Shown: positions 3,189 to 31,960 of the stretch, piece after piece | Layout of the letters: every line of letters begins with the position of its first letter | Position numbering within the stretch: position 1 is the stretch's first letter | Virus record (IMG/VR): IMGVR_UViG_3300046698_000540 | Location: 1 to 64,000 of that record | From: a virus | Length of the DNA stretch: 64,000 nt | Direction: 5' to 3' (one strand) | The notes under the pieces: model-generated | What the model was told of the DNA's origin: nothing | The model's database searches: none | The model's input: only the letters and a program-made list of their open reading frames with translations | Position numbers and translations under genes: made by a program

Positions 3189-3479
3189 CTATCGGCCGTA
3201 GCCTGCGTGTCCCCCCGGCCGGCCGCTTCCAAAATCAGGACCACCACCCAAGACCTGCCGATCCGCCGCGGTGAACTGACGGTTCAGCGTGGATTCAGGC
3301 GCCGCAAAGGAGCCTGGGTCGATGACCGGATTGATGCGCTCGTGCTTCTCCTCTATCCGGTCGAAAATGTCTTCAATACTCTCGCCCACAAGCTGTTCAC
3401 CTGTGGCCCAAGGATGTTCGATGTCGTGTTGCACTTCCGCTCCTTTCAGCGGGGCGCCCCCGGAGGAGAGGCGCCCCAT
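3189..3479 (-). CDS. small protein with partial C-terminal PGGHAGYGR tag
   Basis: Ends ...GRPGGHAGYGR, like four head-region proteins. Confidence 0.7.
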   Translation of the reverse strand: MGRLSSGGAPLKGAEVQHDIEHPWATGEQLVGESIEDIFDRIEEKHERINPVIDPGSFAAPESTLNRQFTAADRQVLGGGPDFGSGRPGGHAGYGR

Positions 3480-3568: not shown

Positions 3569-4360
3569 TCAGCGTACCGCAAGATCCTTATGCATTTGCG
3601 CCATGAACCGAACTTCCTCAAAACCCAGCGCAAGAACTTTTTTCCAATTCTCGCACTCCACATATTTCCGCATGACCTCTTTGAAGGCTGGCTTGCCACT
3701 GAACCACTCTGCTTGGAAATACAAAGGGATCGTTCTTCGCCGGTCCTCTGGGACATTGCGCTCGCACCAGGAGAGAATCGCTTCGAACATCTGCAAGGAT
3801 TCCACGACGAACTTGAGATGCATAGGCACCGAGGATGAAATCCACTTCTTGACCTCCTTCTCTCCATGCGCGGAAATTTTCGCCGCGGCAGTGCCCTCGG
3901 TGAAGTTGAGAAGCTGGCCCGTGGTCTCAAACTTTGGAGACATGGACAGGTACACTCGGTACTTCATCCCGGCCAGGTCGGGGACGAAGATGGCGCCGTT
4001 CGTCTCGATCGTGATGAGCCTTTCTTGATTGTTCCTGTGGGCGGCGTACTCGAAATCTTGCTGAATTCTGTCCTGCTCCCGGACCAAACCAATAATCTCC
4101 ATCAGGTGGTTCGCCTGCAAGGTGGGCTCGCCGCCAGTGAAGCACGCCGGCACCTGGATGGCGTGGCGCGTAATCAGCTCCGCGATCTCTTCGTTGGCCA
4201 TTTCGTAAAAGCGGAATTGAGGCCTGTCGGAAAGCGTGGAAGGGGAATCGCACCATGCGCAGCTCAAATTACAGGTTGCGAAACGAACGAACTGCATGGG
4301 CACTCCGGCGTACTTCCCCTCTCCTTGAAGCGAAAAAAAAGTTTCATTCAATGTCGCCAC
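3569..4360 (-). CDS. queE: 7-carboxy-7-deazaguanine synthase (radical SAM)
   Basis: [26 protein letters not shown] (CxxxCxxC), FTGGEP, IETNG, SPK, QMHK. Confidence 0.93.
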
Positions 4361-6340: not shown

Positions 6341-6649
6341 TTATTGCGTTCTGTAATCTATATTCAATACATCCCCAGGCTGCAGCCCGCCGTATTTTGG
6401 CACAAACGTGATCGTAGCTCCGGACACTGTGTAATCAATACCTGGAGTCTGCCTCAGACCATTCCGGTATACCAACTGTGTGCCTGCCACCAAAGGATGT
6501 TTCAAATTGACGCTAGTCCCGTGGAGGGTGCTCCCCAAAACAGTGAATTCGTTATAAACCCACACCACAGGCACAGCCTGCCCATGTGAACCCCAGGTGA
6601 AAGCCAAAAAGCACAGTAAAAACGCAAGGGAAACTCCAACCGCTTTCAT
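6341..6649 (-). CDS. signal-peptide protein with a phage fibre/baseplate-type beta module
   Basis: MKAVGVSLAFLLCFLAFTWGSHG-Q then VYRNGLRQTPGIDYTVSGATITF ... GDVLNIDY. Confidence 0.65.
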   Translation of the reverse strand: MKAVGVSLAFLLCFLAFTWGSHGQAVPVVWVYNEFTVLGSTLHGTSVNLKHPLVAGTQLVYRNGLRQTPGIDYTVSGATITFVPKYGGLQPGDVLNIDYRTQ

Positions 6650-8045: not shown

Positions 8046-8939
8046 TCACTTGATCTGTACCAGCTTGGAATATGTGCTGGTAGCGAAGCATGTATTCACC
8101 CAAGGACATTCTTGTGCCCGTTGCACCACTCCCGAGCGGCAAATTCTTTCGGGCAGCCGCTTATCCTTGTGAGCCCGATCAATGTCCACCAGAATCTTTC
8201 GGAACTGGGCCCACTGATCGAGATCCAACCTCAGCACGATCTCCTTCACCAGTTGGGTGTTCTTGCACTCATAAATCAGGTGGCAGGCCTTCAGGTCCAA
8301 TCCCGCCATGTAGACGGTCATCTGGACAGCGTGCTCCGACTGCGGCTCGCTGTGAAGCATCCTCCAGTACTCATCCTTGATGGACTTGATGTCCACCAGA
8401 ACAGGCTCTCCAGCAAACCTCCACTGGCCGCCATTCGACAAAACTTTGAATACGAAACCACCGCTACTCGTGAACTTCGGTGTGCCTTCTTCGTAGTACT
8501 CCAGCTCAACCTTGTTGACCGCCTCAGGGTACACAATGGCATCGGCGTGCCCCAAGACGCCCAACTCTGGATCGTGAACTGGAACCTCCCACCCAACACC
8601 CTTCAACGGATTACAAATTCCCGCTTGAATGAGATAGGCTTGCCAACGGCGATGAACCCATTGGCCGTTGTCCACGATGCGAAAAAATCGCGGGCTGAAA
8701 TCTTCGTGAAGCAACTCTTTCGGCCACTTCTCTATGGGAGCGAACCGCGTGAAAAAAAGCTCCCGCGGACAGATATGCTCCCACCCCTTCTTCCAAGGAA
8801 CCATGGAGGAGGGGTGCAGCCACCCCTCCACTTCCGTGGTCGCCTCGTTGCGCTGAAGCAGCATCCGGTCAACACGAGAAAGAATCGCGTCTCCGGAGGA
8901 TGCCTTGAGCGAATCTATAATCGTTTTTAAGCCTGGCAT
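8046..8939 (-). CDS. Cas4-like PD-(D/E)XK exonuclease
   Basis: HPSS ... ICPR ... GHADAI ... VDIKS ... QMTVYM ... C..CPW...C (1+3 Cys arrangement). Confidence 0.8.
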   Translation of the reverse strand: MPGLKTIIDSLKASSGDAILSRVDRMLLQRNEATTEVEGWLHPSSMVPWKKGWEHICPRELFFTRFAPIEKWPKELLHEDFSPRFFRIVDNGQWVHRRWQAYLIQAGICNPLKGVGWEVPVHDPELGVLGHADAIVYPEAVNKVELEYYEEGTPKFTSSGGFVFKVLSNGGQWRFAGEPVLVDIKSIKDEYWRMLHSEPQSEHAVQMTVYMAGLDLKACHLIYECKNTQLVKEIVLRLDLDQWAQFRKILVDIDRAHKDKRLPERICRSGVVQRAQECPWVNTCFATSTYSKLVQIK

Positions 8940-8945
8940 TTTGGA

Positions 8946-9047
8946 AAGAGCGGCCAAGACAGAGCAGCGGAAATTAGCGATCCACTTCCCAGATCAAACG
9001 TACAGATCTTGCTTCAATGGGGCCGCTGCTCTGTCTTGACCGCTCTT
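8946..9047 (-). CRISPR. permuted single-spacer crRNA-like element 1 (type I-G/I-U-like half repeats)
   Basis: Minus strand: AAGAGCGGTCAAGACAGAGCAGCGG-CCCCATTGAAGC-[36-nt spacer 9010..8975]-ATTT-CCGCTGCTCTGTCTTGGCCGCTCTT. Confidence 0.75.
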
Positions 9048-9053
9048 ACTCCT

Positions 9054-9812
9054 CTAACGCTTCCTACCGGGCGCCTTTTTCTCCCCGCCCTTTGGCTTGC
9101 GGGGCACCAGCCTGGCCTTGCCCGATTTCGTAACCTTCACATCCGCTTCGCCGGTGTGAAGGACATGAACCACCTCCGCGCCGGTGGCTTCCTCCGCCTT
9201 GGGCTGTGCCCCGCGGCCGCGCTTCTTCGGAGGCGCCGGCAACCCCTTCTTGCGCGCCTTTTGTTCCTTGAACTCGCCGCAGGCGCACTCGGGATCAACA
9301 CATTCTTCCGTGTTCACTTCCGTCGTGCCTTCCTTGAACAGGTGAAGGTGCCCGCATGTGCATGCCAAACCCTGCTCCAAAGGCAACTCCTGCTGCAATT
9401 CCTCGATCATGAGACGGCCGCTCCAACCACGCACATCGTCCAGGAATGCGATGATCGCCTTGGCCAGGATGTCTGTCGTGATCTTGAAGGACACTGTGGC
9501 ACCGGAGCCGTCCAACTTCGTCGCCGCGAAACTTTTCACCGAACAGGACGGAATATGCAACAGCGCGTCTTTTTCCGCCGGTGTACCTGGTAGAGGATAA
9601 AACGAAACCCGCGCCGCCTCGATGTCGTGGTCAAAACCATGCGACGTAAATTCCGTCAGGGCGCCGTTTTTCCTGTACAGCTCCCCATTGCCCAATTCTT
9701 TGGCCAGCACTTCGCTCAATGCGCCCTCGATGGGAATCGAGCTGACCAGTTTCTCTCCTGTGCTCCTGAAACCCGTCGTACCTGTGACGGATGCTTCAAA
9801 AATTTCTAACAT
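9054..9812 (-). CDS. hypothetical protein with Cys cluster and basic tail
   Basis: CTCGH ... CVDPECACG; SD GGAG. Confidence 0.7.
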   Translation of the reverse strand: MLEIFEASVTGTTGFRSTGEKLVSSIPIEGALSEVLAKELGNGELYRKNGALTEFTSHGFDHDIEAARVSFYPLPGTPAEKDALLHIPSCSVKSFAATKLDGSGATVSFKITTDILAKAIIAFLDDVRGWSGRLMIEELQQELPLEQGLACTCGHLHLFKEGTTEVNTEECVDPECACGEFKEQKARKKGLPAPPKKRGRGAQPKAEEATGAEVVHVLHTGEADVKVTKSGKARLVPRKPKGGEKKAPGRKR

Positions 9813-9828: not shown

Positions 9829-10371
9829 TCATTTCATTAAGCCGCGCGCCCTTAAAAGCGCCATGGCCCGTGTCTTGCCTGCTCCATGTCCGTTCTTGAA
9901 CTGTTCCTTCAGTTCCAGATCCTCACGTAACCGTTCTACGATAACACCAAGCAACCCAGGCGTACCTTCATCCTGCTGAACAATATCGAAAAGAGTCTGT
10001 AAAGGCGAGCCGCCAGCTACGTTATCTATGTAATTTCGCATACCTGGAACCTTCGTGGTCGCCAGGCCGTCCATGCACTGCTTCAAGTACTGGTCGATGA
10101 TGTGGATCTGAGGATGCTCGACCGAATCGATCTGGTCAACATCGTGTTCCTCCAGGAACTTGTTGCACGCGGCCATCCAAGGGAACATTTCTTCCGCAGG
10201 ATGCGTTTCAGGCACCTCGCTGGCGGCTGGTTTGCCGGATAGCTGTGTTGAGCGCTTTGTCTTTAGGTTCTCGCTTTTTCCGGGAGGCCAAAGCTCCTCC
10301 CATAGATCGTGATCTTCCGGTTTTCTTCCGGTTTTCTTCCGCGAATCTTCCGGACTTTTTTGTTTTGCCAT
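9829..10371 (-). CDS. hypothetical protein
   Basis: ORF with SD AGGTGGAG. Confidence 0.6.
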   Translation of the reverse strand: MAKQKSPEDSRKKTGRKPEDHDLWEELWPPGKSENLKTKRSTQLSGKPAASEVPETHPAEEMFPWMAACNKFLEEHDVDQIDSVEHPQIHIIDQYLKQCMDGLATTKVPGMRNYIDNVAGGSPLQTLFDIVQQDEGTPGLLGVIVERLREDLELKEQFKNGHGAGKTRAMALLRARGLMK

Positions 10372-10738
10372 GCTCCACCTTGCCGTCCAACTTGTACCTC
10401 ACCCGGATCTGCAAAAGGCCGGCCGGAATGTTCAATGAGATCGGCTGCTCCGCCAGGATCTGGTCCACAATCTCTTTCGGCGCGTCTCCCACCTTCTCCG
10501 GGTGCTCTCTTTCAAACCACAGATAGTAAGGGCACATGAACTGATCTGGAAGTTTGCAGGCGCCGTTGTCAAACCCGTGGATACACTTCCCGTCCTGAAC
10601 CTGAGGAGCACATGTCAGGGGGATTGGCAGCTTCTTCCGAGGCTCAACTTTTGGTGATGGCACACTCAGCCTCCTTGTCACCTTGCCATCTCTTCGTAGG
10701 CTTCTCTTGGTATACCAAAAGTCCGCGAATAAACCCAA
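10208..10738 (-). CDS. hypothetical Cys-rich protein (start uncertain)
   Basis: CIHG ... CKLPDQFMCPYY; overlaps neighbours. Confidence 0.4.
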   Translation of the reverse strand: MGLFADFWYTKRSLRRDGKVTRRLSVPSPKVEPRKKLPIPLTCAPQVQDGKCIHGFDNGACKLPDQFMCPYYLWFEREHPEKVGDAPKEIVDQILAEQPISLNIPAGLLQIRVRYKLDGKVEHGKTKKSGRFAEENRKKTGRSRSMGGALASRKKREPKDKALNTAIRQTSRQRGA

Positions 10739-16452: not shown

Positions 16453-17088
16453 TTATTTCAGCAGCTTAGGCAGGAGAGCGTAGGTGGGGTCCGGCTTATC
16501 CAGAATCGCCTCCAACTCGGATGGAGATATCAATTGCGCCAGGCATAGACCGTCCACCTTATCTGAGTTGACCTCTTCGACGATCTCCACGCCCATGTCC
16601 CGCAATTGCTTGCGATTCTTCCACAGGAATTTCTGAAACAAATCCCCGCAAGTGGTGATACGCAAATCTACCGCAGCGTCCCACAGCTTCTTCTTTTTCA
16701 GAAGCGTTTCCAGCTTCTCCGGATTCGGCCGCCAGGACCTTTTCTCCTGAATCGTGAGCTGGCCCAGGCCGGGATACTCGAACAGCCTGTGCTGATTCTT
16801 GTCCCCTGTGGGGGAGCCTTCCTCCCGGCGCATTTGAAGGCCGTAGTTTTCCTCTTCCTTGTCCTTGATCTTTTCCAGGAGTTTTGCAATGCGCTTCGCC
16901 ATCGCATCGAGGACGATGTAGAGCGGCACCAGCCGGTTTGTGGGAATAACCGCGACCTCACCGGCCTCCACCAGAGCGATCAACTGCTTAGGCGTGGAAA
17001 CCAGAGCCACTTCCGCGCCGGTCCCTTTCAAGTCTTGAAGCACATCTTCAGACACAACTTCAACCGTCACTGCCGTTTTCTTTGCCAT
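16453..17088 (-). CDS. hypothetical protein
   Basis: Start after GGAAAGGTGAAC; first gene after a promoter. Confidence 0.7.
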   Translation of the reverse strand: MAKKTAVTVEVVSEDVLQDLKGTGAEVALVSTPKQLIALVEAGEVAVIPTNRLVPLYIVLDAMAKRIAKLLEKIKDKEEENYGLQMRREEGSPTGDKNQHRLFEYPGLGQLTIQEKRSWRPNPEKLETLLKKKKLWDAAVDLRITTCGDLFQKFLWKNRKQLRDMGVEIVEEVNSDKVDGLCLAQLISPSELEAILDKPDPTYALLPKLLK

Positions 17089-17203
17089 GTTCACCTTTCC
17101 TGCCCCCACCTTCCCGGCGCCGTTCGGAGTAAGCTGCCTCGAAGGGACGCGCGCTTCTAGCCCTACCGTTTGGCCCGGCACCAAGAAAATGGGGGGTAAT
17201 TTA

Positions 17204-22768: not shown

Positions 22769-22864
22769 ATGTTCACCAGTCCCCACCCAACCAAACCCCG
22801 TCCTACGATTCGGGGTCCCGGCAGGCTGGCGTAGGAACCAGTTGATGTGGGTGGGGATGATTTA

Positions 22865-31846: not shown

Positions 31847-31960
31847 TGATTGGGCTTCTTCGACTCATTGAAGCGGAAATTTTGCTTGCTCGCCTATCAA
31901 AACCGGAGCCACAGCCTTGCTTCAATGGGGCCGCTCCAATGAGCCGAAGAAGCCCAACCA
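31847..31960 (-). CRISPR. permuted single-spacer crRNA-like element 2 (type I-G/I-U-like half repeats)
   Basis: Minus strand: TGGTTGGGCTTCTTCGGCTCATTGGAGCGG-CCCCATTGAAGC-[38-nt spacer 31918..31881]-ATTT-CCGCTTCAATGAGTCGAAGAAGCCCAATCA. Confidence 0.75.

Follow-up and report, generated by a model that had tools for sequence, protein, structure and literature searches.

How might a phage in which no cas genes were detected come to carry, within an operon, a CRISPR (short palindromic repeats, clustered and regularly interspaced) unit built from one repeat that is split in two? This question is raised by Element 1, a 102-nt structure at positions 8946-9047 (minus strand) of a 64,000-nt stretch of viral DNA (hereafter, the window), which corresponds to positions 1 to 64,000 of the IMG/VR record IMGVR_UViG_3300046698_000540. 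The record consists of a single virus contig of 100,369 bp with a CheckV completeness of about 80%. An original prediction made from the sequence alone had described the element as a CRISPR RNA (crRNA)-like molecule, with handle and spacer enclosed in a long stem. Our results support this description: the core has the exact ends of a type I-G CRISPR repeat, the insert measures 36 nt, the layout recurs in other units with co-varying stems, and the spacer has a protospacer flanked by a protospacer-adjacent motif (PAM). We consider it rather likely that Element 1 is a hard-wired guide, matured by a single cut, that hijacks the type I-G Cascade-Cas3 machinery of the host against a rival element.

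Architecture of Elements 1 and 2

A search for inverted repeats identified two arms of 25 nt each (8946-8970 and 9023-9047) that are 96% complementary and separated by 52 nt; the window contains no further copy of the arm (chance expectation 0). In minus-strand RNA, all 25 pairs form (-61.3 kcal/mol, z = -7.57) and none of 200 shuffled sequences is equally stable, in agreement with the earlier claim that arms 9047-9023 and 8970-8946 pair with a single U-G. The fold of the plus-strand RNA is weaker (-54.4 kcal/mol) and leaves one stem position unpaired, so that the sole non-Watson-Crick pair of the element exists, as a U-G pair, on the minus strand only. The minus strand is the coding strand, holding essentially all long open reading frames (ORFs). 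Read from 5' to 3', the element comprises the following parts:

9023..9047, minus strand: 5' arm of the closing stem of Element 1 (25 nt), ending in GCGG, the 3' strand of the type I-G repeat hairpin base
9019..9022, minus strand: CCCC linker between stem base and handle; the Csb2 cut is predicted from PMC9638904 to fall between 9019 and 9018
9011..9018, minus strand: predicted 5' handle ATTGAAGC (8 nt), the same as the 3' end of canonical I-G repeats
8975..9010, minus strand: spacer of Element 1 (36 nt), matching at 32 of 36 positions a protospacer with a TTC PAM on the metagenome contigs L244 and L245
8971..8974, minus strand: ATTT, the opening four bases of the I-G repeat and 5' flank of its hairpin
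8946..8970, minus strand: 3' arm of the closing stem of Element 1, beginning with CCGC, which forms the 5' strand at the base of the repeat hairpin

The 12-nt segment CCCCATTGAAGC at 9022-9011 consists of the CCCC linker followed by ATTGAAGC. It had been proposed as the handle in its entirety; its coordinates hold, but by analogy with type I-G systems the functional handle probably comprises only the 8 nt at 9018-9011. The spacer had been placed correctly, and its 36 nt correspond to the mode of canonical spacers.

When the whole window was searched for close inverted repeats, a second structure with the same layout, Element 2, came to light:

31847..31960, minus strand: Element 2 as a whole, with 30-nt arms and a 54-nt loop
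31960-31931, minus strand: 5' arm
31930-31927, minus strand: CCCC
31926-31919, minus strand: ATTGAAGC
31918-31881, minus strand: spacer (38 nt)
31880-31877, minus strand: ATTT
31876-31847, minus strand: 3' arm

The stem of Element 2 comprises 30 bp, including three G-U pairs. The two elements share a core made up of a GCGG arm end, CCCCATTGAAGC, 36 or 38 variable nucleotides, ATTT and a CCGC arm start, and their outer arms have no sequence in common. All four non-Watson-Crick positions in the two stems are G-U pairs on the minus (coding) strand. Both elements are intergenic, lie on the coding strand and show no promoter- or terminator-like signals of their own, and they represent the only two copies of the core in the whole 100,369-bp contig.

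The conserved core is a split type I-G repeat

To what does this core belong? Scanning viral contigs for CCCCATTGAAGC, followed after a gap of 28-48 nt by ATTTCCGC, yielded 12 loci. One of them (L009) is a canonical array, whose 36-nt repeat opens with ATTTCCGC, closes with GCGGCCCCATTGAAGC and forms an 8-bp hairpin with a 4-nt loop, separated by spacers of 36-37 nt. In genomes, the same pattern marks more than 120 loci, mostly long arrays with a period of 72-73 nt, in Acidobacteriota (Bryobacteraceae, Terriglobia), Planctomycetota, Verrucomicrobiota and other phyla. The genes adjoining these arrays encode a Cas4g/Cas1g fusion (757 bits, cut-off 560), Cas3g (535 bits, cut-off 400), Csb2 (76 bits, NCBIfam cut-off 45) and the I-G Cas3-extension protein; given these scores above the NCBIfam cut-offs, the repeat family can be assigned to type I-G.

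The two junctions of the elements, GCGG-CCCC-ATTGAAGC and ATTT-CCGC, are exactly the two ends of the canonical 36-nt repeat. Previous work on a type I-G system (PMC9638904) reported that Csb2 cuts the 36-nt repeat 4 nt 3' of the hairpin base, leaving an 8-nt handle, and is kept on the 3' hairpin of a 72-nt crRNA that carries seven Cas7 subunits and recognizes targets with a TTN PAM. In the elements, the base of the stem and both of its flanks are identical to those of the canonical repeat hairpin, and the topology alone differs: in place of the apical hairpin loop there is an extended stem with an open end, and the spacer connects the flanks. At 36 and 38 nt, the spacers are of canonical length (34-42 nt in about 1,300 canonical spacers, with a mode of 36-37); canonical hairpins measure 6-10 bp and mostly 8 bp.

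The layout corresponds neither to a mini-array nor to a solitary repeat. ATTTCCGC is missing upstream of the handle, and no handle follows ATTT-CCGC; these places are taken by the arms, which are complementary to each other. Of the 36-nt repeat, Element 1 retains only 16 nt plus 8 nt, split by the 36-nt insert, unlike an RNA anti-CRISPR (Racr) or any other solitary repeat. Ordinary mini-arrays (L002, L006 and L024) are clearly different from the inside-out units. The last of them, on the minus strand of a Terriglobia chromosome (CAWEFR010000001.1), comprises three single-spacer I-G mini-arrays with full repeat-spacer-full repeat organization, dispersed over about 3.4 kb:

3190-3248, 4281-4338 and 6526-6583 (reverse-complement coordinates of the locus), minus strand: mini-arrays of L024

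The canonical viral array mentioned above occupies positions 10315-10700 of a 36-kb viral contig (IMGVR_UViG_3300049734_000449) and contains six repeats, the last of them degenerate, and five spacers. It adjoins a 449-aa ORF without a Pfam or NCBIfam match, and no cas gene was found among the ORFs tested.

Recurrence of inside-out units

All 1,361 exact pattern matches were sorted by whether the sequences outside the core pair with one another, which sets inside-out units apart from arrays and mini-arrays. A relaxed version of the core pattern, whose matches are mostly due to chance and require a structure filter, gave about 105 chance hits pairing over no more than 8 bp on viral contigs, together with three more units pairing over 12, 17 and 23 bp. 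The total is 12 units: the two in the window, seven on other viral contigs (L001, L003, L008, L010, L141, L201 and L234) and three on contigs of metagenome-assembled genomes (MAGs; L048, L059 and L107). Their stems range from 10 to 30 bp (10-23 bp for the ten units outside the window) and are all distinct in sequence, and their spacers measure 35-42 nt. The stems may be longer than canonical hairpins because a cut stem consists of two separate strands, which would need more pairs to stay together.

When the innermost 10 pairs of all units are aligned, 98.3% of the cells are paired, a value that no shuffled alignment or slid register approaches. Eight of the 10 aligned pairs change on both sides, including the closing pairs, where GCGG/CCGC is replaced by TCGG/CCGA and GTGG/CCAC. 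Since the units were chosen by stem length, the bimodal split of stem lengths provides fairer evidence than this covariation.

One unit, L141 (7527-7610), has a GC-rich closing stem of 12 bp that is directly followed by CTTTTTG, and its 35-nt insert is strongly self-complementary. Given the position of the CTTTTTG, the stem may double as a terminator that sets the 3' end of the guide. A role of the MAG units as regulators of host cas loci was considered and rejected, as no Cas4g/Cas1g was found in the three MAGs.

A protospacer for the Element 1 spacer

If the insert acts as a spacer, what does it match? We searched with a pattern that covered the PAM-proximal 23 nt of the Element 1 spacer, left every sixth base free and barred mismatches at the pairing positions among positions 1-23. 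In metagenomes, it retrieved three contigs, one of which (L246) was discarded as a chance hit whose match does not extend. The other two (L244 and L245) are identical to the spacer at 32 of 36 positions, with mismatches at positions 18, 24, 33 and 36, and carry TTC immediately 5' of the protospacer on the spacer-sense strand. Three of the four mismatches fall on the every-sixth, non-pairing positions, so that 29 of the 30 pairing positions match. Counting only the positions that the pattern left free, 10 of 13 match (binomial P about 1e-4), and another factor of 1/16 comes from the TTN PAM; on these contigs, the second-best ungapped alignment matches at 19-20 of 36 positions.

The protospacer lies inside a gene for a 93-aa HTH_31 (Xre-type) regulator. 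The 5.4-kb target contig also encodes a tyrosine integrase, a small HTH protein, an AAA+HTH protein and a CHC2 primase-like protein, and just beyond the integrase gene it contains the 3' 60 nt of a tRNA-Leu(GAG), which are 97% identical to the copy on a Bryobacteraceae chromosome. A related integrase is present in a Bryobacterales genome. The combination of integrase and tRNA-Leu end identifies the target as an integrative mobile element of Bryobacteraceae-like Acidobacteria, the group that is richest in these I-G arrays. The match is not a self-match, because the phage lacks a homologue of any gene of the target element.

At least 231 environmental proteins form the family of this regulator, and the 12 residues targeted (K-I-C-x-F/Y-E-L-G-x-G-x-L) constitute the most conserved motif of the family. 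At a Glu codon that 120 of 120 relatives share without exception, base 18 of the spacer would specify Asp instead; Cascade leaves position 18 unpaired. The target regulator was not found in five I-G-bearing genomes.

Matches to the spacer were thus obtained from metagenomes and not from the other collections searched. Seeds derived from Elements 1 and 2 gave no hits in IMG/VR, nor did a codon-aware Element 1 pattern. Cultured phages and plasmids returned only one chance hit (E = 0.3), and the fetched I-G cas loci contained no match. Within the 100-kb genome itself, the best match to the Element 1 spacer covers 14 nt with one mismatch, bearing out the earlier remark that it has no long match elsewhere in the window. 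A search of 401 Bryobacterales genomes for Element 2, which allowed three mismatches and left one base in six free, gave no hits, and the spacers of L010 and L234 produced only self-hits in IMG/VR.

A model for guide maturation and use

From this anatomy we infer transcription, Csb2 cleavage, Cascade loading and interference, as well as the nature of the host, and propose the following course of events. The guide unit can be described as one repeat turned inside out, with the back half (...GCGG, CCCC, ATTGAAGC) preceding the spacer and the front half (ATTT, CCGC...) following it, such that the two stem strands would pair across the spacer. Transcribed inside a phage operon, the unit would be bound at its stem base by host Csb2, a Cas5-Cas6 fusion, which would cut once, 4 nt 3' of the stem (CCCC|ATTGAAGC), to generate the 8-nt handle. 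Csb2 would then remain on the stem, which would serve as a two-piece stand-in for the 3' hairpin of the crRNA, and seven Cas7 subunits together with Cas8g would assemble on the 36-nt spacer. RNase III may free the unit from the mRNA, as the 25-30-bp stems of the phage appear long enough for this enzyme. The loaded Cascade would find the TTC-flanked protospacer in the Xre-type regulator gene of the tRNA-Leu-integrating element and recruit Cas3, and the phage would thereby aim host immunity at a resident or competing element.

In all, the phage, in which no cas genes were detected, probably borrows the CRISPR machinery of its host against a rival. A search for Csb2 in the phage detected none, a weak negative given that control genomes gave no signal either.

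Several points weigh against this model. Csb2 has been tested on closed hairpins only, and the stem of the elements is open at its far end; in addition, a preprint describes an unconventional specificity of Csb2 (10.1101/2022.08.19.504415). A guide released by a single cut would keep the downstream mRNA attached unless it is trimmed. The contigs L244 and L245 are identical across the region shown and therefore provide one independent target sequence only. The search pattern itself barred mismatches at pairing positions 1-23, and each of the four mismatches is a third codon position as well. Their placement is thus compatible both with a source gene that has diverged and with mismatches that Cascade tolerates, and does not separate the two. 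The stem covariation statistic is partly circular. For Element 2, L010 and L234, our searches detected no protospacer, and none of the 1,343 I-G array spacers matches the phage, so that a link to the host by spacers was not obtained.

Genomic setting and other structures in the window

The stop codon at 9056-9054 and the ATG at 8939 are separated by a gap of 114 nt, and Element 1, with its 102 nt, nearly fills this space upstream of a Cas4-like nuclease gene, as the original prediction had noted. Its neighbours are:

8046..8939, minus strand: downstream gene for a Cas4-domain / PD-(D/E)XK-type exonuclease (297 aa; phrog_1706, 2506 and 1990)
9054..9812, minus strand: upstream gene (252 aa) without a family match, whose stop codon lies 6 nt ahead of the stem

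The exonuclease gene, whose ATG is located 6 nt past the stem, matches Cas4-domain exonuclease PHROGs at E = 2e-17 to 1e-13 and has no Pfam or NCBIfam match. We regard it as genomic context and claim no part for it in the function of the guide RNA.

Between the upstream stop codon (9056-9054) and the stem lies a GGAG (9052-9049), separated from the stem by 1 nt. Folding of Element 1 would set this Shine-Dalgarno-like sequence beside the ATG of the exonuclease gene (8939-8937), so that the stretch 8937-9056 (minus strand) would resemble a ribosome-binding site split in two. The GGA also pairs with a UCC 3' of the stem in the minimum free energy fold.

Among the Rfam models, including those for CRISPR direct repeats and self-cleaving ribozymes, none matches the window at its gathering score. 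An identity of Element 1 with a known ribozyme or RNA family was rejected, as permissive Rfam hits comprised only models of plant miRNA precursors (19-20 bits, compared with cut-offs of 64-184). A blastn search with the Element 1 region against 50,697 phage records returned nothing, and a protein-pattern scan of IMG/VR for the exonuclease produced only hits of 28% identity, so that no orthologous locus was obtained for comparison.

Two other inverted repeats were noted in the window. The first (17103-17195, minus strand) forms a stem of 20 bp, several of them G-U pairs in the minus-strand RNA, around a 53-nt loop, and lies just upstream of the ATG at 17087. Its minus-strand fold has an energy of -50.1 kcal/mol (z = -2.55; plus strand, z = -0.36), and it has no Rfam hit. 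It was rejected as a member of the family because the I-G repeat junctions are absent, and may represent a regulatory structure in a 5' untranslated region. The second (22780-22857) has arms of 28 nt that are 71% complementary and spaced 22 nt apart.

Alternative explanations

Could the units protect the phage rather than harm a competitor? Acting like Racrs or Cracrs/crlRNAs, as anti-CRISPR RNAs or regulatory mimics, they would soak up Csb2, Cas7 and Cas8g, or guide these proteins to silence promoters of host cas or defence genes, and thus shield the phage from I-G immunity, with the killing of rivals not being their purpose. Precedents exist on phages both for repeat mimics that sequester Cas6 or Cas7 (Racr; PMC10651486) and for crRNA-like RNAs that repress cas genes (10.1101/2024.10.29.618823). 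In a phage without detectable cas genes, moreover, any loading of the RNA competes with host crRNAs. If Element 2 and other units had regulatory matches that are short and partial, our searches would miss them, in keeping with the lack of an identified protospacer for these units. However, a spacer of exact canonical length would not be required of a pure decoy, whereas all 12 units keep to 35-42 nt. Furthermore, Element 1 matches a mobile-element gene, not a cas promoter, at 29 of 30 pairing positions and with a TTC PAM, whereas known Cracrs pair in the PAM-proximal region only, and the fetched cas loci remained unmatched. We therefore consider it unlikely that mimicry accounts for the units, although the roles of guide and mimic are not mutually exclusive.

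A second possibility is that the structure controls mRNA processing or translation. Cleavage by RNase III, or by host Csb2, would separate the cistrons and position the ribosome-binding site of the exonuclease gene, and the CRISPR-like core would then be a nuclease site and nothing else. The intergenic position of the units on the coding strand, their lack of promoter or terminator signals, the RNase III-sized stems of 25-30 bp and the GGAG 5' and ATG 6 nt 3' of the Element 1 stem, which folding would place side by side, would all be accommodated in this way. Left unexplained are the spacer-length insert in the loop and the PAM-flanked match of one insert to a foreign gene. In addition, units from other viruses include stems of 10-19 bp, too short for RNase III, and the gene downstream of Element 2 has its own GGAG 3' of the stem. 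These features make a pure processing hairpin a distinctly improbable explanation.

That the units are decayed, functionless remnants of a captured CRISPR array is hardly credible: ordinary I-G arrays and mini-arrays do occur on phage and prophage contigs (L009, L002 and L006), but decay would not yield compensated stems of 25-30 bp that start exactly at the base of the repeat hairpin, and 12 units with unrelated stem sequences repeat the layout with invariant junctions at the Csb2 site.

Relation to known systems and implications

How does the proposed hard-wired guide compare with CRISPR-derived RNAs described before? Phage-borne mini-arrays, Racrs and Cracrs are already known, and all of them are built of whole repeats. 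Phage ICP1 carries a CRISPR-Cas system with its own cas genes and uses it against the PLE satellite, unlike the present phage, in which no cas genes were detected.

Virus-borne mini-CRISPR arrays have been reviewed (PMC11656645) and modelled (PMC7099407) in the context of conflicts between mobile elements. They resemble Element 1 in that a virus without detectable effector genes carries a host-type repeat and a spacer of normal length against a mobile element with a proper PAM, presumably to turn the Cas proteins of the host on a competitor. They differ in having two complete direct repeats, whereas Element 1 contains one repeat's worth of sequence, split, permuted, closed by a stem and placed in an operon, and its handle would need one nuclease cut instead of two.

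Cracrs or crlRNAs, described for types V-A, I-F, I-E, I-C and I-B, with I-G not included (Liu et al., bioRxiv 10.1101/2024.10.29.618823), are likewise phage crRNA-like RNAs that load host Cas proteins in the absence of phage cas genes, and they are often multiplexed, comparable to the two units of the present phage. Like the host CreA/CreR mini-arrays (PMC10120712, PMC9458426), they have a repeat-spacer-repeat organization and match promoters of cas or toxin genes partially, in the PAM-proximal region. Element 1, by contrast, is permuted and shows a near-complete match to the coding region of a mobile-element gene. Racrs (Camara-Wilpert et al. 2023, PMC10651486) share with it the principle of a phage RNA that mimics a repeat and is expected to be bound by a Cas6-type protein, but they are single, essentially full-length repeats without a spacer. 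Since SRUFinder demands a repeat coverage of at least 90% (PMC10651486), it would not report units of the Element 1 type.

A further counterpart is the canonical I-G crRNA of Thioalkalivibrio (PMC9638904), with which Element 1 shares the position of the handle, the 4-nt offset from the stem base, the 36-nt spacer, ATTT followed by a 3' stem, and the TTN PAM. In the inside-out units, however, the 3' hairpin is replaced by a two-strand stem, of 10-30 bp instead of 6-10 bp, whose other strand lies 5' of the handle. Term searches of the literature found no relevant description of permuted, half-repeat or split-repeat CRISPR units.

We also make a broader and more tentative proposal, for which we see slightly less than even chances. 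Split-repeat, stem-closed units may constitute a class of their own among natural guide-RNA genes, one that has not been described before and needs only one permuted repeat, with a single Csb2 cut yielding the handle and a two-strand 3' anchor. Embedded between operon genes, so that guide output couples to mRNA processing, they may serve phages as hard-wired weapons against conserved satellite or prophage genes in Acidobacteria and further phyla of the soil.

Should this layout be accepted by Csb2 and Cascade, a guide could be encoded with half a repeat, without direct repeats, inside an mRNA and with a single cut, which would change the definition of a CRISPR unit. It would also explain why such units escape repeat-based finders, as the published pipelines for solitary repeat units and mini-arrays need near-full repeats, and it would provide a compact design for the expression of type I guides. 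For the biology of the phage, finally, it would offer a concrete, testable case in which a virus lacking cas genes directs the immunity of its host, among poorly studied soil bacteria of the Acidobacteria/Bryobacteraceae-like group, at another mobile element.
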